NCBI GenBank assembly: GCA_029974275.1 | Contig: JARKSN010000032.1 | Span: 1 to 13,189 of the forward strand | Source of the DNA: Candidatus Hydrogenedentota bacterium | GTDB taxonomy: Bacteria; Hydrogenedentota; Hydrogenedentia; Hydrogenedentales; SLHB01 | Length of the DNA stretch: 13,189 nucleotides | Reading direction: 5' to 3' | In this document: positions 1-13,189 of the stretch, one piece after another | Layout of the letters: each line of letters starts with the position of its first letter | Numbering within the stretch: position 1 is the stretch's first letter | Translations under genes and position numbers: made by a program | The notes under the pieces: model-generated | The model's input: the letters and a program-made list of their open reading frames with translations, nothing else | Told to the model about the DNA's origin: nothing | The model's database searches: none

Positions 1-377
1 CCTTCGCCGTACGCTGCCTGCGACGACGCCACCGCGACCTTCTTGACGTCGAGTTTCATCTCGACGATCAGTTCCATGATCAGCGCCGTACTCGTCGCAT
101 TCGTGCTGAGGAAGGTGCTGAAATCGGGCATGTAGTCCTGATACGCGGCTTGGTGAGAAATGATCTCCACGCCTTCCATCGCGCGCTTCATCACGTCCTT
201 GTCGCGCACGTCGCCGTGGATGAATTCGATTTCCGGTTTTACCCACGCGGGTTTTCCCTTCGGATGCACACGCGGTTGGAGACTGTCCACCACGCGCACG
301 TGATACCCGCGCTCCAACAGCCGATCCGCGATGTGCGACCCGATAAACCCGGCTCCGCCGGTGACTAATGCCTTCAT
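1..377 (-). CDS. NAD-dependent nucleotide-sugar epimerase/dehydratase (extended SDR), N-terminal part; runs off the left edge
   Basis: Not in the ORF track. Manual translation from the ATG at 377 gives MKALVTGGAGFIGSHIADRLLERGYHVRVVDSLQPRVH...GDVRD...HQAAYQDYMPDFSTFLSTNATSTALIME...VASSQAAYGEG, with the TGGAGFIG Rossmann motif. An SD-like AAAGGA lies upstream. Confidence 0.92.
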   Translation of the reverse strand, partial: MKALVTGGAGFIGSHIADRLLERGYHVRVVDSLQPRVHPKGKPAWVKPEIEFIHGDVRDKDVMKRAMEGVEIISHQAAYQDYMPDFSTFLSTNATSTALIMELIVEMKLDVKKVAVASSQAAYGE

Positions 378-392
378 GACGTCATCCTTTTC

Positions 393-1055
393 CTACGTAG
401 GACCTGCACCGAACAGCATGACCCACGGCGTTTTCAGCATGATTTTGACATCGAGCCAGATGGATTGATTGTGGATGTACTCAAGATCATCCGCGTACAT
501 CTGCTCAAACGTGGACTGGCTGCGGCGACGCACCTGGTTCAGCCCCGTAATGCCCGGACGCACCAACAATCGCAGCTTCTTGCGCGCGTCGTAGAGTTCG
601 TATTCATAGGGCACGGGCGGACGCGGGCCGACGATCGACATGTCGCCCTTGAGCACGTTCAGCATCTGCGGAAACTCGTCGAGGCTCACGCGGCGGATGA
701 GTTTGCCAATGGCGGTGACGCGCGGATCGTTCGTGAGTTTGAACACCTCTTCGCCGGTCTTGTCGTCCACATGGCCTTTGCCGTCGGCCACATACCTGCG
801 GATGAACTCCTTGTGTTTGCTCGCGTCGCCGTCGGTCGCCATCGAGCGGAATTTGTAGTAGGTGAAGGCCTTGCCGTCCTTGCCGATCACCGTGCCGCGA
901 TACAGCGCCGGTCCGGGCGAGGTCAGCTTGATGGCAATCGAAACGACGAGAAAGACCGGCGACAAGGCCACGAGCGCCATCGTTGCCACGGCGATATCAA
1001 GCGCGCGTTTGCAGAACAAGAACAGCGGATCGGTCCGCGGCGTCACGTCGGTCAT
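393..1055 (-). CDS. Priming sugar transferase (undecaprenyl-phosphate glycosyl-1-phosphate transferase, small Bac_transf type)
   Basis: Motifs KRALDI-(hydrophobic helix)-SPGP, YKFRSM, DPRVTAIGKLIRRVSLDEFPQMLNVLKGDMSIVGPRP, RPGITGLNQV and DLEYI. Start placed at ATG 1055, which overlaps the upstream TGA (ATGA); the longer ORF from 1169 overlaps gmhA. Confidence 0.93.
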   Translation of the reverse strand: MTDVTPRTDPLFLFCKRALDIAVATMALVALSPVFLVVSIAIKLTSPGPALYRGTVIGKDGKAFTYYKFRSMATDGDASKHKEFIRRYVADGKGHVDDKTGEEVFKLTNDPRVTAIGKLIRRVSLDEFPQMLNVLKGDMSIVGPRPPVPYEYELYDARKKLRLLVRPGITGLNQVRRRSQSTFEQMYADDLEYIHNQSIWLDVKIMLKTPWVMLFGAGPT

Positions 1056-1645
1056 GCGCATCCGCCCGAACACGCGGCGCTCCTGCCGCCCAGCGCGGTC
1101 TTCAACACTTCGACCAAGGCATGCTCGAGGATTAGGTGGGCGTCTTCCGCCACGGCGATGCAGGCGCACGGGGCGTTGAGGTGGACGTCCACGATGTCCT
1201 TCAACGCGCCGCCGTCGAAGCCCGTCATGCCGACCACGTTCAGCCCTTGGGCGCGGGCCGTCTTTGCGGCCTCCAGCACGTTCGGCGAATTGCCGCTGCC
1301 GGAAATGGCCACCAAGAGATCGCCAGGGCGCGCCAACGCCTCGATCTGCTTCGAGAAAATCTGCGCGTACGCGATATCGTTCGCATACGCCGTGACAAGG
1401 GACATGTTGTCGGCCAGGCCGATCGCGCGGATCGGGCGGCGCCCCGACGCCTCTGCCGGGGCTTTCACGAGGTCGTTCACCATGTGCGTGGCGGTCGCGG
1501 CGCTCCCGCCGTTGCCGCAGACATAGATGACCTTGTCGTTATCGTACGTATGCTGAACGATCGCGACCATGGCTTGGAACGCGTCACGGTCGATGCCCTT
1601 CAAGGTCGCATGCAACAATCCGAGATAGTCGTCAAACGTTACCAT
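1052..1645 (-). CDS. gmhA: SIS-domain phosphoheptose (sedoheptulose-7-P) isomerase, GmhA-like
   Basis: Motifs CGNGGSAA, TAYANDIAYAQIFSKQI, GDLLVAISGSGNSPNV, TGFDGG and EDAHL. Start at ATG 1645 with GGAG upstream. Confidence 0.85.
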   Translation of the reverse strand: MVTFDDYLGLLHATLKGIDRDAFQAMVAIVQHTYDNDKVIYVCGNGGSAATATHMVNDLVKAPAEASGRRPIRAIGLADNMSLVTAYANDIAYAQIFSKQIEALARPGDLLVAISGSGNSPNVLEAAKTARAQGLNVVGMTGFDGGALKDIVDVHLNAPCACIAVAEDAHLILEHALVEVLKTALGGRSAACSGGCA

Positions 1646-1670
1646 GCCAAGCTCCGTTTCCTGCGATTTT

Positions 1671-1740
1671 CCACGGAGACACAAAGGACGCAGAGAAAAC
1701 TCGGAGAAAAAGAGACGGAATCGCTTTGCGCCATTGCGTT
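1671..1740. repeat. Intergenic REP-like imperfect inverted repeat
   Basis: The left arm CCACGGAGACACAAAGGACGCAGAG contains three CRCRRAG units at 8-9 nt spacing. The right arm CTTTGCGCCATTGCGT is a degenerate reverse complement. On the mRNA strand GGCGCAAAG/CUUUGUGUC can pair with G-U pairs. Confidence 0.4.
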
Positions 1741-1781
1741 CATCTCTTTATCACGCTCTTTTTTTGAAGCGTTTACCCCAT

Positions 1782-2942
1782 TCAGCGTCCCAATGCGCGC
1801 TGATACGTCTCCGCATATTGCCGCGCGATGCGATCCCAAGTATACTCGATCTCGACGTGTCGTTGCGCATTTGCGCCCAGTTCCGCCACGCGTTCCGGTT
1901 GCGCGATCAACTGCGTCAATTGGGCGCGCAAGTCGGCGACGTTCCCTTGGGCGAACGTCGCCCCGTGCGGCGACGGCGTTGCGGTCGTGTCGGCGTGCGC
2001 GTAGCCCAATCGCGGCGGGTCAATCACCTCCACCACCTCCGGGATGTCGCTCGTCAGGCAGCACAACCCTGCGCCCATCGCTTCGAGCAACACGATCGGA
2101 AGCCCTTCGATATCCGACGGCAAACAGAAAAGATACGCGTTGTGATAGGCCTCTTCCTTTTCTTCGCCGTAGAGCGCGCCCGTGAACACAATGCGGTCAT
2201 CGCCCTCTGCAAGACCGCACACCTTGTTGTAGTAATCGGTTGCATGCCGTGCATCGCCAACGATGAGCAGCTTCATGTCGGTCTCCACCTGCCGGAACGC
2301 GGGAACCAAGTAATGGCTGCCTTTCTCCGGCACAATGCGCCCGAGGTAGAGAATGTACTTGCGCGGTTCGATGCCGAAACGGCGGAGTTTGTCCAGCGGA
2401 CGCGGCGCGATGGCAGGCACGCCGTTCGGAATGTAGTCGACCGCTTTGCCATAGCGTTCGCGGCAATAACGTTCGAGAAAACGTGACACCACCGTTGTCC
2501 GATTCGGAAACAGCAGCGCGCAACGCTCACCGAGTTTGAGCACCAGCTTCGCAACCGTGCCCCATTTGTCGCGCCGCCAATCGAGGCCATGCAGCGTGCA
2601 CACCGTCTTGCGGCCAAACAGACGCGGAAGAAACGACAACAAGGCAGGGCCCATCGAGTGAAACTGAATCACCTCGCACTCTTTGGTCGCCACGAGCATT
2701 GACAAGAACGAGTGCGTGATTGCCTCCAAATGCTTTGTGTATATCGCGGGCAGGCTTGCAAGGCGCACGCCGTGGAAGGCGGTCAGTCCCTCGCGGTTGT
2801 ATCGCGCGCGGCAATAGACCGTCACCTCGTGTCCCTGCTCAACCAGGCGGACGCTCACCTCTTCGATCAATTTCTCGACGCCGCCCGCCGTGCCGCTCGA
2901 CGCGCCCCCAATCGTGATGAGCCCCACTATGCCGATACGCAT
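1782..2942 (-). CDS. Glycosyltransferase family 4 (GT-B)
   Basis: N-terminal GGVEKLIEEVS, YIPNGV, LYLGRIVPEKG and the EX7E motif LPSDIEGLPIVLLEAM; C-terminal YTWDRIA. Confidence 0.93.
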   Translation of the reverse strand: MRIGIVGLITIGGASSGTAGGVEKLIEEVSVRLVEQGHEVTVYCRARYNREGLTAFHGVRLASLPAIYTKHLEAITHSFLSMLVATKECEVIQFHSMGPALLSFLPRLFGRKTVCTLHGLDWRRDKWGTVAKLVLKLGERCALLFPNRTTVVSRFLERYCRERYGKAVDYIPNGVPAIAPRPLDKLRRFGIEPRKYILYLGRIVPEKGSHYLVPAFRQVETDMKLLIVGDARHATDYYNKVCGLAEGDDRIVFTGALYGEEKEEAYHNAYLFCLPSDIEGLPIVLLEAMGAGLCCLTSDIPEVVEVIDPPRLGYAHADTTATPSPHGATFAQGNVADLRAQLTQLIAQPERVAELGANAQRHVEIEYTWDRIARQYAETYQRALGR

Positions 2943-2949
2943 GGCGCGT

Positions 2950-4254
2950 CTACCTCCGAGCAGCCTTCAGTGCACGCTCATAAATTTCCATGATGCGCGG
3001 ATACTGCGGTTCGGCGTCGTATTCCTCTTCTGCGCGTTTCCGCGCGCGCACGCCCATCTCGCGCAGGCGCGACTCGTCCGACAATGCCTCGCGCAATGCA
3101 CGCACAAGATCGGCGACATTTCCGCTTTCAAATAGAAACCCCGTTTCGCCATCGAGGATCATTTCGCCCAAGCCGCCAATGCGCGCCCCGATGACCGGCT
3201 TGCCGTACGCATACGCTTCGATCAGCGCAAGCGGGCAGTTCTCGTACCACTCCGACGGGATCACGATCGCCTTTGCCCCGCGAATGGCTTCGCTGAGCGC
3301 CTTCCCGGAAAGGTGGCCCGTGAGTTCGAGATTCGTCGCGCCGCTCTCGCTCGCCGCGTGCGCGATCTCTTCCTCGAAAGGGCCGCGCCCCGTGATTTTG
3401 AGGCGCGTATCCGGAAACTCCCGCATCGCCGCGGCAAGCGTGAGCACGCCCTTTTCCCGCGACAGTCGCCCGAGATACAGCAGGTATTCGCCCGGCGCAT
3501 ACCGAGGCTCGTACCCTTCTACGCGCACAAAGTTCGGCGCGTACGTGACTTTTGCCTCGTCAATGCCGAACTCGATGAGTTTCCGGCCCGTGAAGCGCGA
3601 CGGCGCAACGATGACGTCGTAGAGATCGTTGTAGCGCAGCAGATGATGTGCGTACATCTCGACCGTATTGACGAAGCTGGCGAGTCGCGATCCTTTCGTG
3701 CAGCGATGGATCGTCGCGTTGTAATACCGGCGCCCCCTGCACCGCTCGCAGATGCCGTCGTGCGTGTACAGCTTGTAGTTGGGGCAGATCAACTTAAAGT
3801 CATGCGTCGTGAACACGACCGGGATGCCGCGCTTCTTGAGTTCCGGCAAAATGCTCGGGCTGATTTGGTGATGAAAATTGTGCACATGCGCGATATCGAA
3901 CGGAATGGCGTCCAGTAGCCGCGCAATCCGCTTCCGCGCCTCCCCAGAGTAGACGGTGCGGGCCGCCAGCGTGAGTTTTTGACGCAAACCCGATGGGCCG
4001 TCGTAGTCTACGCGGTCAATAAAATACGCTTCTTCCGGCGAAGGGACATTCTCCGGGTGGCGCATCGAGAAGTGCCCGACGAAGTGGCCGTGTGCGCGCA
4101 AGAGATCGGTCAGCCCGAAATAACAAACCTCCGAACCGCCGTTGAGGAAATGAAACTTATTCACGTGCAGCACGCGCAGGGAGGTTGCAGCGGCGCGCGG
4201 GGGTTCCTGGGCAACGTGCGTTTTCGTTCCTTTTATGGCGCCCTGGTGCGACAT
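2950..4254 (-). CDS. Glycosyltransferase family 4 (GT-B)
   Basis: LRVLHVNKFHFLNGGSE, HVHNFHHQISPS, the Cys cluster TTHDFKLICP...CERC...C, LYLGRLSREKG and PSEWYENCPLALIEA. Start chosen at ATG 4254 because the ORF extension to 4386 overlaps the divergent gene and promoters. Confidence 0.9.
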   Translation of the reverse strand: MSHQGAIKGTKTHVAQEPPRAAATSLRVLHVNKFHFLNGGSEVCYFGLTDLLRAHGHFVGHFSMRHPENVPSPEEAYFIDRVDYDGPSGLRQKLTLAARTVYSGEARKRIARLLDAIPFDIAHVHNFHHQISPSILPELKKRGIPVVFTTHDFKLICPNYKLYTHDGICERCRGRRYYNATIHRCTKGSRLASFVNTVEMYAHHLLRYNDLYDVIVAPSRFTGRKLIEFGIDEAKVTYAPNFVRVEGYEPRYAPGEYLLYLGRLSREKGVLTLAAAMREFPDTRLKITGRGPFEEEIAHAASESGATNLELTGHLSGKALSEAIRGAKAIVIPSEWYENCPLALIEAYAYGKPVIGARIGGLGEMILDGETGFLFESGNVADLVRALREALSDESRLREMGVRARKRAEEEYDAEPQYPRIMEIYERALKAARR

Positions 4255-4260
4255 GGGTGC

Positions 4261-4289
4261 ATCATAGCGGTCGTTCTTGGCGGGGTCAA
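4261..4289 (-). promoter_or_regulatory. Sigma70-type promoter of the polysaccharide operon
   Basis: Minus strand reads TTGACC (4289-4284), a 17-nt spacer, then TATGAT (4266-4261). Each box matches consensus at 5/6 positions and the spacing is optimal. Confidence 0.7.
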
Positions 4290-4307
4290 TGGCTGCCCGC
4301 CAAGTTT

Positions 4308-4336
4308 TTGCGGTGTGGGCCGCTGATCTATAGTCT
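4308..4336 (+). promoter_or_regulatory. Putative sigma70 promoter for the divergent GT2 gene
   Basis: TTGCGG (4308-4313), 17 nt, then TAGTCT (4331-4336); an overlapping TATAGT sits at 4329-4334. GAGGAAG SD precedes ATG 4365. Confidence 0.4.
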
Positions 4337-4364
4337 GAGCGGAAGACGTACGAGAGGAAGACCC

Positions 4365-5114
4365 ATGCCGGAGATTTCGCCGTCATCCGCGCCGAATGCG
4401 CTGTTCTACTCCATCATCGTGCCGGCGCACAACGAGGAACGGAACATTGCCCGGACGCTTCGCGCGTTGGCCGGGGCCTTGCACGGGGCCGCCATACCGT
4501 TTGAGATTGTCGCCGTGAACGACAACAGCTCCGACGGCACGGCGCAGGCCGTCGAGACTTTGCGCGAGGAAATCGCGGAGCTTCGGCTTGTCCACAACGC
4601 GCCGCCGCCGGGATTGGGCCGCGCCATTCGCTGCGGACTCGAACATTTCCGCGGCGATGCCGTGGCCATTGTCATGGCGGATTGTTCCGACAGCCCCGAT
4701 GACGTCGTGGCGTGTTATCGCAAACTCGAGGAAGGCTATGACTGCGTGTTCGGGTCGCGGTTTCTGCCGGGCAGCCGGGTGACGGATTATCCTCCCGTGA
4801 AGCTAGCGTGCAACCGGCTCGGAAACCGGCTCATCCAAGCCCTTTTCGGGACGCGCCACAACGATCTCACGAACGCGTTCAAGGCATACCGCCGCCATGT
4901 CATCGAGGACATCTCGCCGGTGCGGTCGGACCACTTCGATATCACCGTCGAATTGTCGTTGTCCGCGCTGACTCGTGGCCATGCCATCGCGGCCATGCCC
5001 ATTTCCTGGACCGGCCGCACATGGGGCCAATCCAAGCTCCGTCTGCGTGAAATGGCCCTTCGTTATCTCACGACGATTCTCAGAATCCGCTTCGGGCTTT
5101 CCGCGCGCGGCTGA
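4365..5114 (+). CDS. Glycosyltransferase family 2 (DPM1/polyprenol-phosphate glycosyltransferase-like)
   Basis: YSIIVPAHNEE, VNDNSSDGT, GLGRAIRCG, IVMADCSDSP, GYDCVFGSRF, DLTNAFKAYR and RTWGQSKL. ATG 4365 with SD GAGG. Confidence 0.9.
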   Translation: MPEISPSSAPNALFYSIIVPAHNEERNIARTLRALAGALHGAAIPFEIVAVNDNSSDGTAQAVETLREEIAELRLVHNAPPPGLGRAIRCGLEHFRGDAVAIVMADCSDSPDDVVACYRKLEEGYDCVFGSRFLPGSRVTDYPPVKLACNRLGNRLIQALFGTRHNDLTNAFKAYRRHVIEDISPVRSDHFDITVELSLSALTRGHAIAAMPISWTGRTWGQSKLRLREMALRYLTTILRIRFGLSARG

Positions 5115-5845: not shown

Positions 5846-7111
5846 CTACACGGTTTCCGCGACGCGCTCCGAACGATTGGCGGCGCCATCGCCCGTGACC
5901 AAGCGGGCCGTCTCGCGCGCAATCATCAGCTCTTCGTCCGTTGGAATGACCAGCACGCGGACGGTGGCGTGATCCTGCGAGATGTCCCGCTCGTTCCGGG
6001 CGTTTTTCTCTTCATCGATCGCCACGCCAAGATATCCCGCCTGCTTGAGAATGCGGCTGCGCATTTCGGCCCCTCGCTCGCCGATTCCTCCGGTGAACAC
6101 AATCGCATCGACGCCGTTCATCACCATTGCATACGAGCCCGTGAAACGGGCCACGCGGTAGGCGAACATCTCGAGCGCAAGCTGCGCATCCGGGTCGCCC
6201 TTGGCGGCCAACGCTTCGCAGTCCCGCACATCCGCATGGCCGCAAACGCCCTCGAACCCGCTCTGCTTGTTCAACGTGCGATCGACCTCGTCGGCGGTCA
6301 TGCCCATTTCCTTGATCATGAACAGCGGGATATAGGGGTCCATATCGCCGCAACGCGTGCCCATCATCACCCCTCCCAACGGAGTGAGGCCCATGCTGGT
6401 CTCGACGGACTTGCCGTGGTCGACGGCGGTGATGCTGCTCCCATTGCCGAGGTGACAGGTGATGAGGCGCAGGTCCTTCAGCGGCTGGCCGAGAAGCTTC
6501 GCCGCTTCCAGGGCGACGTAGTGGTGCGACGTGCCGTGAAATCCGTATTTTCGGACGCCGTATTCCGTGTACATGCTTTTCGGGACTGGATACCGGTATG
6601 CCTGCGGCGGGATGGTATGGTGGAACGCCGTGTCGAACACGGCGACTTGGGGGATCCCGCTGAATATTTTCTCGCACGCTTCGATGCCTTCGAGCGCGGG
6701 AGGATTGTGCAGCGGAGCCAGGCGCGAGCATTTGCGAATGCCCGCGAGCACGTCGTCGTCGATGATGACCGACCCCGTGAATTCCTCGCCTCCATGAACG
6801 ACGCGGTGGCCAATCCCCACGATTTCGGTGATGTCGCTAATGACGCCGCAGTCCGAGCAGAGAAGAGTCTTGCAAATGGCGTCAATGGCCGCGCCATGAT
6901 CGGGAACGGCCACCAGACCGTTGCTCTTCGCAAAAACGGCTTGCCGCTGACACAACTTCCAATCCGTCTCGCAACAGGCGCACTGAATGCGCGAACCCGT
7001 CAGCCCGATGCGCTCGACCGATCCCTTCGCAATGACCTGGCTGCCGCCGTTGACATCGAACACCTTGAACTTGACGGAAGACGAACCGCTGTTCAGGACC
7101 AATACTTTCAT
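5846..7111 (-). CDS. ackA: Acetate kinase
   Basis: VLVLNSGSSSVKF, GHRVVHGG, LAPLHNP, VAVFDTAFH, RKYGFHGTSH, HLGNGSS, TSMGLTPLGG, GTRCGD, FTGGIGE and IPTDEELMIA; adjacent to pta. Confidence 0.97.
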   Translation of the reverse strand: MKVLVLNSGSSSVKFKVFDVNGGSQVIAKGSVERIGLTGSRIQCACCETDWKLCQRQAVFAKSNGLVAVPDHGAAIDAICKTLLCSDCGVISDITEIVGIGHRVVHGGEEFTGSVIIDDDVLAGIRKCSRLAPLHNPPALEGIEACEKIFSGIPQVAVFDTAFHHTIPPQAYRYPVPKSMYTEYGVRKYGFHGTSHHYVALEAAKLLGQPLKDLRLITCHLGNGSSITAVDHGKSVETSMGLTPLGGVMMGTRCGDMDPYIPLFMIKEMGMTADEVDRTLNKQSGFEGVCGHADVRDCEALAAKGDPDAQLALEMFAYRVARFTGSYAMVMNGVDAIVFTGGIGERGAEMRSRILKQAGYLGVAIDEEKNARNERDISQDHATVRVLVIPTDEELMIARETARLVTGDGAANRSERVAETV

Positions 7112-7150
7112 GCCTTGACACTCCGATCGTGATTTCGCGCCCAGGGCGCT

Positions 7151-8155
7151 TTACCGCATTATCTGGCTTTGCACCACCGTCACCGCCGCGACGCCCACAA
7201 TATCTTCCCACGAGCAGCCCCGCGACAAGTCGTTGACAGGCAACCGCAGCCCCTGCAACACGGGGCCATACGCTTCCGCGCCCGCCAAGCGTTGAACCAG
7301 TTTGTAGGCGATGTTGCCGGCGTCCAGATCGGGAAACACCAGCACGCGGGCGCGACCCGCCACTTCGCTCCCCGGAGCCTTGGACTTGCCCACGCTCTCC
7401 ACGAGCGCCGCGTCGCCTTGCAACTCGCCGTCGATCCGCACGGGCGAATCCGCGCCGAACCGTTCGGCCATGCGTTCCTTGGCGATGCGCGTCGCCTCGA
7501 CCACCTTCTCGGTCAACACGCTCTTCGCGGAACCTTTCGTCGAATACGACAACATGGCCACATACGGGTCAATCCCGAAATTCAGCGCCGTCTGCGCGGT
7601 GCTCAACGCGATCTCCGCCAACTGCATGGCATCGGGATTCTCCACCAGTCCGCAGTCCGCGAACAAATACGTCACGCCCGTATCCGGCATGTCCATGAAA
7701 AAGAACGACGAAACCAGCGCGCAGCCCGGCGCCGTGCGCAAAATCTGAAGCGCGGGACGCAGCGTGGCGGCCGTCGAATGAATCGCCCCCGCCACCATTC
7801 CGTTCGCCAGTCCCCGGTGCAACATCATCATGCCGTGATGAATCGGTTCGAGCACGGCCTCTCGGGCCTGCTCGGGCGTCACTCCCTTGGCCTTGCGCAG
7901 GGCATAAAACTCTTCCGCGAACGAGGAGGTCCATTCCGCCGATGCGGGATCGACCACGCGCAACGCGCGCTTGATGCCCAGCGCTTCGAGTTTGGAGCGC
8001 ACCATCGCCTCATCGCCTATCAAAACGACGGAGCCGATGCCCTGTTCCTCGATGGCGTCAGCCGCCAGCAGGGTGCGGTCATCCTCGGGTTCCGGAAGCA
8101 AGATGGTCTTCGGGTCCTTTCGGGCTTTGGCAATGACAGCGTCAATGAACTTCAT
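7151..8155 (-). CDS. pta: Phosphate acetyltransferase (short, single-domain class I Pta)
   Basis: ILLPEPEDDRTL, LRPALQILRTAPG, VSSFF, FADCGL, AMLSYSTKGSA, DGELQGDAAL, FPDLDAGNIAYKL, GPVLQGL and NDLSRGCS. Start at ATG 8155 with SD GAGG; 8170 is the alternative. Confidence 0.96.
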   Translation of the reverse strand: MKFIDAVIAKARKDPKTILLPEPEDDRTLLAADAIEEQGIGSVVLIGDEAMVRSKLEALGIKRALRVVDPASAEWTSSFAEEFYALRKAKGVTPEQAREAVLEPIHHGMMMLHRGLANGMVAGAIHSTAATLRPALQILRTAPGCALVSSFFFMDMPDTGVTYLFADCGLVENPDAMQLAEIALSTAQTALNFGIDPYVAMLSYSTKGSAKSVLTEKVVEATRIAKERMAERFGADSPVRIDGELQGDAALVESVGKSKAPGSEVAGRARVLVFPDLDAGNIAYKLVQRLAGAEAYGPVLQGLRLPVNDLSRGCSWEDIVGVAAVTVVQSQIMR

Positions 8156-8321
8156 GCAGTGGTTCCTCATTTCGGCGCCCCAAACGCACAGGGACGCGCT
8201 CCCTTTCGCTTTTCGATTTGGTTACTGCGCGGCTGCTACCGCATACATGCAGAGCAATCCCTGAAGAAAACAAGCACAAAACATGCCATGCGGACCCTGC
8301 CGCAACCCGGCACAAAGGCGT

Positions 8322-8351
8322 ATTATACCGTATATGGGGACGTTTTTGCTA
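8322..8351 (-). promoter_or_regulatory. Putative sigma70 promoter for pta-ackA
   Basis: Perfect TATAAT on the minus strand (8327-8322), a weak -35 TAGCAA 18 nt upstream, and an AT-rich upstream tract (8360-8380) in otherwise GC-rich DNA. Confidence 0.5.
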
Positions 8352-8402
8352 GGAAATCCGTACATATTTTTCTTACAAACCGACCCAAGGGCGCTTCCGT
8401 TC

Positions 8403-8978
8403 CTACAAAAATGTAGCGCTGCCGTATGTTTGCGCCTCCGTCACGACAAGATCGACGGGAATGTCGTGCGGCTCGACCGGAATCGTCTCGACGAGACACG
8501 CCTCGTATGCCAAGCCGATGGACGGACCGGCATGGCGCGCCAAGAAACGGTCAAAATAGCCCGCGCCGTACCCAATGCGATACCCGTCGCGCGTGAACGC
8601 GACGCCGGGAACAATCACGACGGCGCCCGGATCGGGATCGTGCGTGCGGCGGCCATCGGGTCCGGGCTCCCAAATGCCGAACGCGCCACGCACAAGGTCC
8701 TCCACCCGCGCAAGTTCCGGCCACACCAGAGTGCGGCCCGGCGCGCATACAGGAACCCGCACCGGACGGCCTTCCTGCAAAAGCCAGCGTATCAGTTCGA
8801 ACGTGTCGACTTCGTTGTCCTTCGACGAGACATAGGTCAACACCTGGGGCGCTTGCCGCACCCACGGCAACGCCGCCACGCGCGCTAAAATAGCCGCGCT
8901 CTTATCACGCGTCGCCGCCGCCGACATGCGCGTGCGGCGTTCGAGGAACAGGGCGCGCATCTCCGGTTTCGTCATCAT
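8403..8978 (-). CDS. ygfA: 5-formyltetrahydrofolate cyclo-ligase (YgfA/Fau family)
   Basis: K..MRALFLERR N-terminus, YVSSKDNEVDT, GAFGIWEP, IVPGVAFTRDGYRIGYGAGYFDRFL and EPHDIPVDLVVTE. Start trimmed to ATG 8978 because the longer ORF overlaps the CHAD gene. Confidence 0.92.
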   Translation of the reverse strand: MMTKPEMRALFLERRTRMSAAATRDKSAAILARVAALPWVRQAPQVLTYVSSKDNEVDTFELIRWLLQEGRPVRVPVCAPGRTLVWPELARVEDLVRGAFGIWEPGPDGRRTHDPDPGAVVIVPGVAFTRDGYRIGYGAGYFDRFLARHAGPSIGLAYEACLVETIPVEPHDIPVDLVVTEAQTYGSATFL

Positions 8979-9039
8979 CCTGCGCCCGCAAGCGGAAAGA
9001 CCCGGCGCACGCCCCCCGATCCTTCGCGGTCCATTCTTC

Positions 9040-9981
9040 TCACTCTCCGTAGGCGGCTTCGAGCTGTTGATCGGCGGGCGCGGCGTCGCGGCAACACGCC
9101 CACGTCGGTTCCTCGAAAAAGGCCCGCGTCTCGTGCGCGCGTTCTGCGGCGAAAAAACGCGTCCCCAACTCGCCAAATGCGCGAAGACAATCCGCCGCCT
9201 CTTGATCGAGTTCGGCGAGAAGCGCCTCCGTGCCCGTGGGGGCCGGGGAAGCGGCAGCCAGCACGCGGCGGACATGGTCCCGCGCAAGACGCCGGTCGTT
9301 CCACGTTCCCAGGAGGTCTTGCAGTTCCTTCAGGGCAGCGACGAAAACGTCCATCCGCTCTTCGTACAGCGGCACATACAATTCGCAGGCATACCGAAGC
9401 TTTTTCAGGCAAATGCGAATGCAGTGAAGCGTTTCCTCGGAAGGCATGCCGCGCCACAGCAAATACACGGCGCGCGCTCCGGAATAGCGCCGGCAAAGCG
9501 CGCGCGCCGCTTCCTTGAGATAACAGGTCCGCGGCGGCCTCATCCCCAAAAACAAATCCACCAGCGCGAGTTCGAATTCGCGGAAAGCAGCCGCGGACGC
9601 GCCCTCTGCAACGGAGTTTGATAGGGCTTTGCGCTCGGCGCGCAACCGGCGCAATGCGACGGCAAGCGCCGCCCGAACAGAACCATCGCGCCGCCGCCGC
9701 CGTTTTTCGAGCAGCGCTATCGTGACGTCCAACTCGCGCGGCTTTCCCAGAGCTTTCGTGATGGCGCGCGCGCGCTGCGTCACGGGACGACGCGTCCCCC
9801 CCATAAAGACCTTCCTGTGGGCGACAAGAGCGGCCCGCAAACGGCGCGACGCCACGCGCAGATCATGGATGCCGTCCGGGTCTTCGGCGCGCGCCGCTTC
9901 GATAGAGGCATGCACCATGGCCGCCCGCGCCCGCACCAGCCGTGACGCCGCCTCCAGCGCCAACACGCACCGCTTCGCCAT
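9040..9981 (-). CDS. CHAD-domain protein (polyphosphate-binding)
   Basis: Both CHAD half-repeats are present: DPDGIHDLRVASRRLRA...LGKPRELDV and EETLHCIRICLKKLRYACE...LKELQDLLGTWND. The protein is very Arg-rich and helical. Confidence 0.9.
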   Translation of the reverse strand: MAKRCVLALEAASRLVRARAAMVHASIEAARAEDPDGIHDLRVASRRLRAALVAHRKVFMGGTRRPVTQRARAITKALGKPRELDVTIALLEKRRRRRDGSVRAALAVALRRLRAERKALSNSVAEGASAAAFREFELALVDLFLGMRPPRTCYLKEAARALCRRYSGARAVYLLWRGMPSEETLHCIRICLKKLRYACELYVPLYEERMDVFVAALKELQDLLGTWNDRRLARDHVRRVLAAASPAPTGTEALLAELDQEAADCLRAFGELGTRFFAAERAHETRAFFEEPTWACCRDAAPADQQLEAAYGE

Positions 9982-10020
9982 CGCTCGTTCCCTTCGCGCA
10001 CCGCGCCCGGCTGGAGAAAA

Positions 10021-10761
10021 TCAGTCCATGCCTTCCACCACCGGGCCCTCGGGAGCGCTGATCACGGCCTCGGTCTCCTTCAAATCCAGCAACGACCGCA
10101 CGCGCTTGCGCAGCCGCTGTTGCACCGTCATCACCGAGCCATGCGCGCTCACCTTCGTCATCTCGAACTCCTTGGTCATCTTCGCAAAAGCGCGAATCAT
10201 GCGTTTCTGATAGCGCATGAAACTGTCGTACAGATTATCGGCAAGGTTCATGTCCATGCCGCACTCCCAGAACCCCAGTTTTTCGGCCTTGAGGGCCCGC
10301 TCGGCCAGCACGTCGAGGTCCACCTCCAGATACAGGGTCAAGTGCGGAACAAGCGCAAACGAATACGCCTTGCGCAACCACTGCGCGTTGAGTCCGCGCA
10401 CGCCGTACCGCGCGAAAATCGTATAGATGTAGCGATCGGCCAGCACGATGAATCCCCCCTGCAACGCCGGCACGATGGCGCGCTCGAGTCGGTCCGCCAA
10501 ATCCGTGGCGTAAAACAACGCGAGGGTGCGCCGTCCGATTTCATGGCCTCTTTTGGCTTTTGTGAGGCCGATTTCGGTCAATTCCGATCGGCACAACGAC
10601 GTCGTGACCACGCCATAGCCGAGATTCTCGAGCCATTCCTGCAGCAGCCGAATTTGCGTGCTTCGCCCCACGCAATCCGGTCCTTCCAGCACGATAAGAC
10701 GCCCCTGCAGATCCACGTTTCGCAGCGTGGGAATGCCCGCTCCGAAATAGTGCGCTTTCAT
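10021..10761 (-). CDS. Thymidylate-kinase-like P-loop protein with degenerate Walker A; putative regulatory subunit of a PPK3-type polyphosphate kinase
   Basis: LIVLEGPDCVGRST (Arg at the catalytic Lys position), ATDLADRLE, IVLADRYIYT and ECGMDMNL. Paralogous to the upstream gene, with an ATGA overlap. Confidence 0.8.
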   Translation of the reverse strand: MKAHYFGAGIPTLRNVDLQGRLIVLEGPDCVGRSTQIRLLQEWLENLGYGVVTTSLCRSELTEIGLTKAKRGHEIGRRTLALFYATDLADRLERAIVPALQGGFIVLADRYIYTIFARYGVRGLNAQWLRKAYSFALVPHLTLYLEVDLDVLAERALKAEKLGFWECGMDMNLADNLYDSFMRYQKRMIRAFAKMTKEFEMTKVSAHGSVMTVQQRLRKRVRSLLDLKETEAVISAPEGPVVEGMD

Positions 10762-11453
10762 GCCTTCTTCCTCCCGGCCGGCCGCATCTTCTTTTCCTTG
10801 ATCTTTTCGAGAACCACCTTGCGGATGCGTCGCTGCTGTTTCTCGATGGGATGATCGCCGTGAACCACGACAAGCCCGTACTCATTCACCAACTTGTCGT
10901 ATTCCTCCATGATCCGGGCCTGAAACTTCAGAAAGCTTTCGGCGGGATCGCGGCTCAGCCCGAGATCCATGCCCGCCTCGTAATACTTGAGGCCCGCTCG
11001 ACCTCGGAAAATGCGCTGCACCGCGGTCTGCAGCGGAACGCGAAAATAAAACGCCAGATCAGGCTGCACCGCGAAACTATACAGATCGCGCACATACTCC
11101 GGGGCCACCCCGCGCACCACATCGCGCGAAAACGCCGTCCACACATACCGGTCGGCCAACACAATCATGCCCGCCTGAAGCGGCGGGATAATGGCGCGTT
11201 CGAGCCGATCCGAAAAATCGGTGGCATGGATCAACGCAAACGTCAGCGGCGTGAGAATCTGCTTGGTCTTGCCCAGCTTCGTCGTCTTTTTCACGAGTTT
11301 CGACGAATTCCACTCCGTGAAAAACAGGTCGTATCCCTCCTGGATCAACCAAGACCGCATGAGATCCAGTTGGGTGGACTTGCCCGAGCCGTCCACTCCC
11401 TCTACGACAATCAGCATGCCGGGGTACTCATGTGGCGAACGCAAACCGGACAT
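10758..11453 (-). CDS. Thymidylate-kinase-like P-loop protein with intact Walker A; putative catalytic subunit of a PPK3-type polyphosphate kinase
   Basis: LIVVEGVDGSGKST, TEWNSS, ATDFSDRLE, VLADRYVWT, PDLAFYF and YYEAGMDLGLS. Strong SD AAGGAGGT precedes ATG 11453. Confidence 0.82.
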   Translation of the reverse strand: MSGLRSPHEYPGMLIVVEGVDGSGKSTQLDLMRSWLIQEGYDLFFTEWNSSKLVKKTTKLGKTKQILTPLTFALIHATDFSDRLERAIIPPLQAGMIVLADRYVWTAFSRDVVRGVAPEYVRDLYSFAVQPDLAFYFRVPLQTAVQRIFRGRAGLKYYEAGMDLGLSRDPAESFLKFQARIMEEYDKLVNEYGLVVVHGDHPIEKQQRRIRKVVLEKIKEKKMRPAGRKKA

Positions 11454-11524
11454 ACCGTCACCTCCTTGCGCAAACCGTCCGCACTCCTGCCGTCCTGCCC
11501 AACGGGGAAAAGCGTCCGGATTTC

Positions 11525-12445
11525 TTACCCGTGCGGCCTATGGATGCCGATCAGATACCCGGCCCCGAAACAGGCCGCGCCAAGCAACAGCGAAATGATC
11601 AGCCACGCGATGTGCGTCCCGCGGCGTTCCCACATCGCCAAAAAACGACTCCGCAGCCACGTGAGCAGACTCGGCTCGAGCAAGGCCACGATAACGGTGA
11701 TATTGTCCTTGCCGCCGTTGTCGTTGGCCAGGTTGACCAACCGGGACGCGATTTCCGCCGGCCTGCCGCCTTTCTTGAATTCAGCGGCGATCTCCGAATC
11801 CTTCGCCATGTTGACCAAGCCGTCGGTGCACAACAACAGCATATCGCCGGGAACCGTGTCCCAGGCGTACCCGTCCACGTCAACCGCCTCATGGGTTCCG
11901 ATGCACCGCGTCACGAAATTGCGCCGCGCGTCCGACTCTGCCTCGGACTTCGTCATGAAGCCCGCCTTGACCTGCTCATCCACCCACGAATGATCCTCGG
12001 TCTTGTCGACGATCTCGCCGTTTCGCAGGTGATAGCAGCGCGAATCGCCAACGTTTGCGATATGCGCCCGGCGCGGCTGCACGACCGCCGCCAGGAAGGT
12101 GGTCCCCATGGGACGCCCCGCCTTTACCAGTTCACTGTTGGTTTGGAAAATGCTCGCGTTGGCTTTCTTGATCCATTCCAGCAAAACCGGCAGCGGACTT
12201 GGGGCGGCATCGGGCGCGTCCGGCTCCGCGGGCGGTTGCCTGAGGGCATCCTTCACGATAGCGACGGAAAGCCTGCTCGCAATCTCGCCGCCCGTGTGAC
12301 CGCCCAGCCCATCGGCCACGCACAGCATCGCCCCTTCCTCAAACAACCGCAACCCCGGCACATCCTCGCGAAACACGCCGTAGCTGTCTTCGTTGTTCCG
12401 TTTTTTTCGCCCGACATCCGTTTGTGCCGCGATATCGATCCGCAT
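11525..12445 (-). CDS. PP2C/PPM-family Ser/Thr protein phosphatase (Stp1/PrpC-like) with a C-terminal transmembrane helix
   Basis: TDVGRKKRNNEDS, VADGLGGHTGGEIAS, MGTT, ANVGDSRCY, TEDHSWV, LLLCTDGL and GGKDNITV. Hydrophobic tail IAWLIISLLLGAACFGAGYLIGI. Confidence 0.94.
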   Translation of the reverse strand: MRIDIAAQTDVGRKKRNNEDSYGVFREDVPGLRLFEEGAMLCVADGLGGHTGGEIASRLSVAIVKDALRQPPAEPDAPDAAPSPLPVLLEWIKKANASIFQTNSELVKAGRPMGTTFLAAVVQPRRAHIANVGDSRCYHLRNGEIVDKTEDHSWVDEQVKAGFMTKSEAESDARRNFVTRCIGTHEAVDVDGYAWDTVPGDMLLLCTDGLVNMAKDSEIAAEFKKGGRPAEIASRLVNLANDNGGKDNITVIVALLEPSLLTWLRSRFLAMWERRGTHIAWLIISLLLGAACFGAGYLIGIHRPHG

Positions 12446-13189
12446 ACGACCCCTCTGCCGCGCATGCCCGACGCGCGTGTCCTCTCACACGCCACTATAC
12501 CCTTTCCGGGCGAAGCTGTGCGAACTCGCGCCCCCGGCGCCATGCGCGCAGCGGATCCGCGGCGTTTCGGTCGCATTCCCCCTTGTCGGAACGCTACGCC
12601 CAACAACAGCCGAACCGCCGCCCGTCGTGCACTCAATACCCGGCATTTTATATGCCCCTCCGGCAGGCTTTTGACGGTTGTCCGCCCGACGCGGTTTGAA
12701 AACCGCCCCGCCGGTATGCTACCGTTTCCCTGCGCCAAAACGCACGCGTACCCGTAGCTCAATGGATAGAGTACTTGGCTACGGACCAAGGGGTTGGGGG
12801 TTCGAGTCCCTCCGGGTACGCCATTCCCCTCTCTTGCCCCATCTTGCAAACCCTTGTCTTTATTGGCCGAAATGCGATCTGTATCATCTGTTACGCTGTT
12901 ATGGATAAATGCCTCTTCATTGCCAAATTTTGCCTCGCTGCACCACGTTTTGCCGGATTTTGGTGCAACCGTTGGGGCAACCAAATTCGCCGCCTTTTGG
13001 GCAAGTAGCCCCGGGTTCTCGCCGCAAAAATCCGGCAACTTGCCCACGGCGTCCGCCGTGTCAATCAGCGTAAGGTGCGTGTAGATATTCGCCGTCAAAG
13101 TCGGCGTGCTGTGCCGCATGGCCTTTTGCGCCACCTGCAACGATACGCCCGCTTTTGCCAACATTGTGCCAAAGGTGTGACGCAATGCG
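12253..13189 (-). CDS. Tyrosine recombinase/integrase, C-terminal catalytic part (5' end beyond the window); the frame stays open through the tRNA to a stop at 12253
   Basis: (H)ALRHTFGTMLAKAGVSLQVAQKAMRHSTPTLTANIYTH is box II of tyrosine recombinases, with HxxR, a second His and the catalytic Tyr. Integrase-like sequence ends at about 13030; the extension past the tRNA is probably non-native. Confidence 0.88.
   Translation of the reverse strand, partial: ALRHTFGTMLAKAGVSLQVAQKAMRHSTPTLTANIYTHLTLIDTADAVGKLPDFCGENPGLLAQKAANLVAPTVAPKSGKTWCSEAKFGNEEAFIHNSVTDDTDRISANKDKGLQDGAREGNGVPGGTRTPNPLVRSQVLYPLSYGYACVLAQGNGSIPAGRFSNRVGRTTVKSLPEGHIKCRVLSARRAAVRLLLGVAFRQGGMRPKRRGSAARMAPGARVRTASPGKGIVACERTRASGMRGRGVVCGSISRHKRMSGEKNGTTKTATACFARMCRGCGCLRKGRCCAWPMGWAVTRAARLRAGFPSLS
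12696..12725 (+). promoter_or_regulatory. Possible promoter for tRNA-Arg
   Basis: TTGAAA (12696-12701), 18 nt, then TACCGT (12720-12725) with an extended -10 TGn, 22 nt upstream of the tRNA. Confidence 0.3.
12748..12823 (+). tRNA. tRNA-Arg (anticodon ACG)
   Basis: 76-nt cloverleaf: acceptor GTACCCG/CGGGTAC plus G and encoded CCA; D arm GCTC-AATGGATA-GAGT; anticodon arm CTTGG-CT ACG GA-CCAAG; T arm GGGGG-TTCGAGT-CCCTC. Confidence 0.98.
12824..13189. mobile_element. Left end of an integrative element (genomic island/prophage/ICE) inserted at tRNA-Arg(ACG)
   Basis: An integrase points toward the tRNA 3' end, GC content visibly drops after the CCA, and there are att-arm-like repeats at 12910-12982. 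Confidence 0.8.

Follow-up and report, generated by a model that had tools for sequence, protein, structure and literature searches.

A third family of polyphosphate (polyP) kinases, PPK3, has been described from Sulfolobus acidocaldarius, in which SaPPK3 is a heteromer of alpha2beta2 composition: the catalytic subunit Saci_2019 (cPPK3) is activated by Saci_2020 (rPPK3), which is inactive alone (Hofmann et al., J Biol Chem 2026, PMC12995831). Saci_2019 acts as a PPK but not as a thymidylate (dTMP) kinase, and SaPPK3 favours ATP formation about 50-fold. We draw on parts of that paper and of its Data S1, and statements on its content are limited to these. Here, we describe a related locus on a 13,189-nt stretch of contig JARKSN010000032.1 from a Candidatus Hydrogenedentota bacterium (assembly GCA_029974275.1); this whole stretch is called the window. 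Two adjacent thymidylate kinase (Tmk)-like genes, cA and rB, are followed by a gene for a CHAD protein, a domain that binds polyP. The three genes very probably form a polyP module, consisting of a family-3 polyphosphate kinase and its CHAD protein, in a Hydrogenedentota bacterium from wastewater or sludge.

The PPK3 system, its bacterial members and the CHAD linkage are already published (PMC12995831). The PPK3 clade was described there as consisting mainly of bacterial dTMP kinase paralogues, with the canonical enzyme encoded elsewhere in the same genomes. Typical neighbours are CHAD, PPX, SixA and Pst genes; genes for the two subunits occur together in every predicted operon, and most holders lack both PPK1 and PPK2. 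The Sulfolobus tokodaii protein STK_15430 is the homologue of Saci_2019, and the inactivity of Saci_2020 and STK_15420 was attributed to loss of the arginine of the DRX motif. Bacterial PPK3 entries in Data S1 include Leptospirillum spp. (PPK1 0, PPK2 1, PPK3 1) and Ktedonobacteria; 'Hydrogenedentes' was not found in the 31,788 of 47,545 rows covered. Our literature search found no assay of any bacterial PPK3, and the locus is a clean bacterial example in an enzyme family whose characterisation has so far been confined to a single archaeon. The name itself is ambiguous: papers on UDP-sugar biocatalysis cascades use 'PPK3' for another enzyme, a PPK2-family kinase.

The gene pair and its family assignment

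Read along the minus strand, cA is followed by rB and then by the CHAD gene (Table 1). The preliminary description of this DNA had reported two translationally coupled paralogues of Tmk fold, an intact Walker A motif in one and a degenerate one in the other, no (T)REPGG motif in either, a common E[AC]GMD[LM]xL motif, a strongly basic first protein and a CHAD gene shortly downstream, and each of these features is present. The overlapping stop and start codons were read directly from the sequence, and both proteins match Pfam Thymidylate_kin (PF02223; cA 75.6 bits, rB 61.2 bits). cA carries GVDGSGKST at residues 19-27, KLVKKTTKLGKTK at 52-64, a DRX motif of the form DRY, the lid RIFRGRAGLKYYEAGMD, EAGMDLGL at 159-166 and the C-terminal stretch KIKEKKMRPAGRKKA; it contains lysine-rich stretches and has a net charge of +10 and an isoelectric point (pI) of 9.67. 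In rB, the Walker A motif is GPDCVGRST (27-35), with arginine in place of the lysine, and the common motif is ECGMDMNL (166-173); DRY is kept and the basic lid residues of the c subunit are missing. Where the canonical Tmk of the same genome has VTREPGGT, cA reads TEWNSS and rB TSLCRS; the dTMP-binding residues of dTMP kinases, among them the EP of TREPGG, are not conserved. The CHAD protein matches PF05235 with 119 bits over residues 21-238, which covers profile positions 9-228 of 228.

Table 1. Features of the three-gene locus in the window
Feature	Position	Strand	Basis
cA, predicted cPPK3-type catalytic subunit, 231 aa	10758..11453	-	open reading frame and sequence; predicted role
rB, predicted rPPK3-type regulatory paralogue, 246 aa	10021..10761	-	open reading frame and sequence; predicted role
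ATGA, overlap of cA stop and rB start (translational coupling)	10758..10761	-	sequence
AAGGAGG, putative ribosome-binding site, 7 nt before cA ATG	11461..11467	-	inferred from sequence
Spacer between rB and CHAD gene, 39 bp	9982..10020	-	sequence
Stand-alone CHAD protein, 313 aa	9040..9981	-	Pfam PF05235

The three genes are under selection and are no chance open reading frames (ORFs): in cA and rB, strain-level changes are mostly synonymous, a sign of purifying selection, and the indels either preserve the frame or fall between genes. A variant strain, represented in a public activated-sludge run, spans the entire stretch and differs from it at 51 letters, with 6 gaps. Among the 40 of 50 differences that were listed, five in cA are synonymous and none is non-synonymous; the corresponding counts are 14 and 3 for rB, and 6 and 6 for the CHAD gene. 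Of the indels listed, one removes 3 nt from the CHAD gene without shifting its frame and the others are 1-nt changes in spacers, including 1-nt deletions at 9996 and 10000 between rB and the CHAD gene.

Sequence comparison supports the assignment of cA and rB to the PPK3 family and not to canonical Tmk or PPK2. In searches of the whole PDB sequence set, cA matched STK_15430 best (2plr/5h70; 205.5 bits, E 8.6e-60, residues 12-218), with a canonical Tmk next at 51.8 bits. rB also matched STK_15430 best (123.5 bits), and its next match, again a canonical Tmk, scored 46.2 bits. A FastTree phylogeny of 172 rows (81 c-type, 80 r-type and 11 canonical Tmk sequences, with long branches flagged) has, for each of the three groups, a branch that separates it from the rest (support 86 for c, 97 for r and 100 for canonical Tmk). 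cA falls in the c clade and rB in the r clade, and both adjoin the proteins of another Hydrogenedentota locus (L006). Identity to the genome's own canonical Tmk is about 28%.

The heteromeric family 3 PPK of Sulfolobus that the preliminary description had named does exist, as Saci_2019 and Saci_2020, and its suggestion of a bacterial polyP module gains support from the scores above, with 205.5 and 123.5 bits for the two proteins against STK_15430 compared with at most 51.8 bits against canonical Tmk. Its appeal to PPK2 needs correction. PPK2 (PF03976), like PPK3, is a polyP-nucleotide phosphotransferase of the P-loop kinase class; however, PPK3 is not specifically related to PPK2 and the ADP and polyP sites of the two are swapped (PMC12995831). 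The window proteins therefore resemble Tmk and not PPK2, and PF03976 has no match in cA or rB in Pfam.

The likeness to SaPPK3 extends beyond overall similarity. Both systems consist of two adjacent Tmk-fold paralogues, one with full catalytic motifs and a basic surface and the other degenerate; both have a CHAD gene in the operon and a canonical dTMP kinase elsewhere, and the dTMP-binding motif is lost. In contrast to SaPPK3, the host here is bacterial and mesophilic, the window locus lacks ppx and sixA, and rB retains the DRX arginine and has a Walker-A lysine-to-arginine change.

Gene order and phosphate-related neighbours

Relatives were collected by tblastn of species-representative genomes at E <= 1e-3, which gave at least 563 confirmed ones, some of which may be canonical Tmk. 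Neighbourhoods were counted in the best 80 of these, all bacterial, after the ORFs had been clustered and the clusters named by Pfam. These 80 loci share 56-77% identity with cA, Hydrogenedentota being closest, and are distributed over Hydrogenedentota, Chloroflexota, Acidobacteriota, Nitrospirota, Planctomycetota, Omnitrophota, Binatia and others; Ktedonobacterales loci, from a group also represented in the published entries, are among them. A c-type gene is directly followed by an r-type gene on one strand in 76 of the 80 loci. In three of the remaining four the r gene lies about 3 kb upstream, and the fourth is a short contig with the c gene only.

The neighbourhoods are rich in phosphate-linked genes: 66 of the 80 loci have at least one of the scored phosphate-linked neighbour families. 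CHAD is the most frequent (55 loci, 49 of them with CHAD within 300 nt of the pair), followed by SixA-like His_Phos_1 (36), PhoU (21), a PstB-like ABC ATPase (15), a Pst-type permease (10), a histidine kinase (10) and a PstS-like binding protein (5). The CHAD linkage is conserved in the phylum as well, since the order c-r-CHAD was found in five of seven PPK3-bearing Hydrogenedentota loci (six from genomes of the phylum sample, plus L006). In the two exceptions the contig ends after the r gene or, in genome G120, a Ppx-GppA gene takes the place of CHAD. A further recurrent neighbour, a cluster of about 172 aa without a Pfam match present at 35 loci, was rejected as antisense shadow ORFs, 51 of 52 lying opposite CHAD and one opposite a kinase gene.

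Several observations weigh against interpreting the locus as a polyP kinase module. cA nominally passes the NCBIfam dTMP-kinase equivalog TIGR00041 (85.0 bits, cut-off 83.25), rB scoring 63.3 bits and thus below it, and a preprint notes, in the part used here, that STK_15430 had previously been described as a thymidylate kinase of an unusual kind. The proposed orthology of rB to archaeal rPPK3 follows the published wording, the tree being built of bacterial rows with no archaeal ones. The published explanation of rPPK3 inactivity, by which Saci_2020 and STK_15420 have lost the arginine of DRX (PMC12995831), does not apply to rB, which keeps DRY; the predicted inactivity of rB draws on the lysine-to-arginine change and the missing lid residues only. 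The genome also encodes a PPK2, and therefore PPK3 need not be its polyP synthase. Lastly, no metatranscriptome contig lies inside cA or rB. RNA evidence is negligible: one contig of about 155 nt was found in each of two runs, at 9798-9952 inside the CHAD gene and at 11467-11600 at the end of the upstream PP2C phosphatase gene and in the adjoining spacer, and DNA carry-over is possible for both.

The first of these observations, together with the Thymidylate_kin matches, raises the question of whether cA and rB are genuine nucleoside-monophosphate kinases whose substrate is dTMP or a modified or alternative nucleotide; they would then be a redundant or specialised counterpart of Tmk that has nothing to do with polyP metabolism. 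Canonical Tmk does have the P-loop kinase fold with Walker A, DRX and lid in common with cA and rB. However, neither protein has TREPGG, which is replaced by an invariant EWNSS in the c subunits; both fall outside the canonical Tmk clade; and they have no holB neighbour, whereas a separate canonical tmk of the genome does. That gene, which the preliminary description had suggested looking for, lies on another contig (C197) directly upstream of holB and encodes a 212-aa protein with TREPGG (161.5 bits). Moreover, Saci_2019 is without dTMP kinase activity (PMC12995831), and the genomic context is one of CHAD, SixA, PhoU, Pst and Ppx and not of nucleotide metabolism. We consider a nucleoside-monophosphate kinase pair highly improbable.

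The score on TIGR00041 has a practical consequence, in that automatic annotation names cA a dTMP kinase. Mislabelling of this kind had been anticipated for the pair and extends to its relatives: among 90%-identity clusters, rB has 3086 relatives at E <= 1e-10, and the named ones are called thymidylate or dTMP kinase. Since PPK3 genes are systematically annotated in this way, genome-based inventories of polyP metabolism miss them.

Catalytic and regulatory subunits

Alignments of the c and r sequences separate the two subunits clearly. All 81 c sequences have the P-loop G[IVT]DGSGKST, DRY, EWNSS and the lid R-x4-R-x3-KYYEAGMD, and the basic residues K25, K62, R83, R102, R110, R114, R122, R147, R152, K156 and R211 are invariant; K62, R147, R152 and K156 are invariant in c only. 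Nearly all of the 80 r sequences have the P-loop GxDGVGR[ST][TS], in which the Walker-A lysine is replaced by arginine. DRY is kept in all listed r motif variants, and the arginine/lysine pair of the lid is missing. The c subunits are basic (median pI 9.33, net charge +6) and the r subunits acidic (median pI 5.34, net charge -5), with c more positive than its partner in 77 of the 80 pairs. No other r of this set is as basic as rB (+5).

By homology with SaPPK3, cA would be the catalytic subunit, its intact P-loop binding ATP or ADP and the arginine of DRY clamping the transferred phosphate. The polyP chain would be held in a basic cleft of cA, with lid residues that are conserved only in c subunits, and the enzyme would reversibly catalyse polyP(n) + ADP <-> polyP(n-1) + ATP. 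rB, having lost the Walker-A lysine and the basic lid residues, is most likely non-catalytic and probably assembles with cA, as in the alpha2beta2 complex of Sulfolobus, thereby raising cA activity. The CHAD protein probably places the enzyme on the polymer or regulates it there. Activity, heteromer formation, inactivity of rB and the role of CHAD are in each case transferred from SaPPK3. The published work draws an analogy to two-domain class II PPK2, in which active and inactive modules are likewise paired (PMC12995831).

It is also conceivable that rB is not inert, and that it binds nucleotide or the phosphate chain, providing either a further active site, of low activity or different specificity, or a sensor of the ligand. 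The near invariance of GxDGVGR[ST] and DRY across the 80 r sequences points in this direction, as does the excess of synonymous over non-synonymous changes in rB among the differences listed for the strain variant. A census of 99 single-domain-length representatives among the top 150 matches of an exhaustive phmmer search with cA, to which the two window proteins were added, is also relevant: 55 are c-type, 18 have the lysine-to-arginine P-loop with DRY, and six retain the lysine with the DRX arginine replaced by K, Q or G. Two different lesions therefore mark regulatory-type paralogues. Replacement of the Walker-A lysine by arginine usually abolishes phosphotransfer, however, and the r sequences are without R147, R152 and K156 of the lid, which are invariant in c. 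Saci_2020 is likewise inactive alone (PMC12995831). An rB with a ligand-binding or catalytic function of its own thus appears unlikely, and we retain the reading of rB as a probably non-catalytic partner of cA.

Polyphosphate kinases in the phylum, wider occurrence and surroundings

The window's genome (100% complete, 342 contigs) has three Tmk-family genes, namely cA, rB and the canonical one beside holB. The search for other polyP kinases, also suggested in the preliminary description, returned one PPK2 (237.6 bits), encoded on a contig other than that of the window (C80:19382-20080) as a single domain in a 300-aa frame. PPK1 was not found in searches with PF02503 and PF13090, Ppx-GppA was not found in a genome search, and the window's CHAD gene is the only CHAD match in the genome. 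The coexistence with PPK2 differs from the situation of most PPK3 holders described in the published work, and the inventory of no PPK1, one PPK2 and one PPK3 is the same as that of the Leptospirillum rows (PMC12995831).

Across 121 sampled genomes of the phylum, the PPK3 pair is present in seven (that of the window, G028, G036, G068, G070, G120 and G015), and the other matching genomes have canonical Tmk only, at about 30% identity. PPK1 is present in 88 of the 121. Within the family to which the window's genome belongs, PPK1 was found in none of the six PPK3 holders compared with 32 of 42 non-holders, a pattern to be read knowing that related genomes are not independent and that two of the holders are 84-86% complete. 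PPK1 and PPK3 occur together in G015, a genome of another family. A two-domain PPK2, with two PF03976 matches in one frame of 500-600 aa, is carried by each of the other five holders within the window's family. Among these five, Ppx-GppA was found only in G120 (C808:10631-11467), directly after the r gene of locus L089.

These inventories bear on the direction in which the module operates. It may serve in vivo only to consume polyP and regenerate ATP, with the polymer made by the genome's PPK2; the roughly 50-fold preference of SaPPK3 for ATP formation (PMC12995831) and the presence of the PPK2 gene are consistent with this. However, PPK2 enzymes too prefer the polyP-consuming direction (PMC12995831), no PPK1 was found in the genome, and the absence of PPK1 from same-family holders, together with its frequency in non-holders, fits replacement of a synthase. 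A purely consuming role is a serious possibility, although not the one we favour. With a kinase acting in both directions as our preferred reading, a more specific and speculative proposal is that PPK3 replaced PPK1 as polyP synthase in one wastewater clade of Hydrogenedentota, with r a ligand-sensing pseudokinase that sets the direction by energy charge. We advance it tentatively and regard it as rather doubtful; the combination of lysine-to-arginine change and intact DRY is shared by r subunits of different bacterial phyla, and purifying selection acts on it. If true, regulatory subunits would have arisen twice independently, through the lysine-to-arginine change here and through loss of the DRX arginine in Sulfolobales. 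The r subunits with DRY and a lysine-to-arginine P-loop, the missing PPK1 in six same-family holders and the cPPK3-like fusions described below go beyond the parts of the published work on which we draw (PMC12995831).

The stretch recurs in habitats in which polyP cycling matters. At least one fifth of the sampled words of positions 8900-11600 were found in 14 public runs from 11 studies, all of them wastewater, activated-sludge or anaerobic-digester metagenomes; the best-matching run may be the source sample.

The exhaustive phmmer search with cA returned 335 clusters (50% identity) at E <= 1e-30 and 1647 at E <= 1e-10, and the former count, with the spread of the 80 loci over many phyla, shows PPK3 to be much more frequent among uncultured bacteria than the phrase 'a few scattered bacteria' suggests. 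Natural fusions join the two subunits in one chain (c-r) or add Ppx-GppA domain III/HD to them (P0121, P0216, P0035, P0041, P0130, P0131, P0134 and P0225), an example of c-r being a 460-aa protein of Alicyclobacillaceae. The second half of P0225 has G for the DRX arginine and that of P0041 the lysine-to-arginine P-loop. The c-r and c-r-Ppx fusions support a physical and functional link, and the other fusions are leads.

Among the latter, a NUDIX hydrolase is N-terminal to a cPPK3-like domain in P0196, P0243, P0249, P0255 and P0261 (385-419 aa; five clusters at 50% identity). A Major Facilitator Superfamily (MFS) transporter is combined with a cPPK3-like domain in P0169, P0178, P0193, P0207, P0218 and P0209 (771-1276 aa), on metagenome contigs of up to 120 kb, and all of these except P0209 also have an APH/DUF2252 kinase-like domain. 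InPase (PF18823) stands beside a cPPK3-like domain in P0166 (2575 aa, with ART-PolyVal), P0191 (1610 aa) and P0217 (968 aa); this combination matches the 'polyvalent proteins' encoded by phages and conjugative elements. A 794-aa protein from a transcript of the protist Ancoracysta twista (P0160, EukProt) combines SPX, a cPPK3-like domain and DUF2252. Over 232 aa, its kinase domain shares 42% identity with cA, and GKST, WNSS, DRY and YYEAGLD are all conserved. SPX is a eukaryotic phosphate-sensing domain, and for this reason P0160 is a candidate polyP kinase outside VTC and PPK1. A literature search found no paper uniting an SPX domain, thymidylate kinase and polyphosphate.

A promoter and terminator scan of positions 8300-12700 was uninformative, since its one promoter-like and six terminator-like sites are close to the shuffle means of 0.8 and 5.3. 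The PP2C phosphatase gene lies at 11525-12445, 71 bp upstream of cA. Downstream of the CHAD gene, all on the minus strand, are the 5-formyltetrahydrofolate cyclo-ligase gene (8403-8981) and pta with ackA (acetyl-phosphate/ATP; 5846-8170). These four genes were considered as parts of the module and rejected; they are beside the pair in none of the seven Hydrogenedentota loci compared and are therefore not counted in it.

Toward the window end, a tRNA-Arg(ACG) gene lies at 12748-12823 (+), and the C-terminal catalytic end of a tyrosine integrase (12900-13188, -) reads toward it from beyond the window, its frame having no stop until 12253. The two probably mark the edge of an element integrated at the tRNA gene. 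At the other end, positions 3-5114 hold a polysaccharide-synthesis cluster of an NAD-dependent epimerase (cut at the window start), a Bac_transf sugar transferase, a SIS-domain protein and three glycosyltransferases, two of GT4 and one of GT2.

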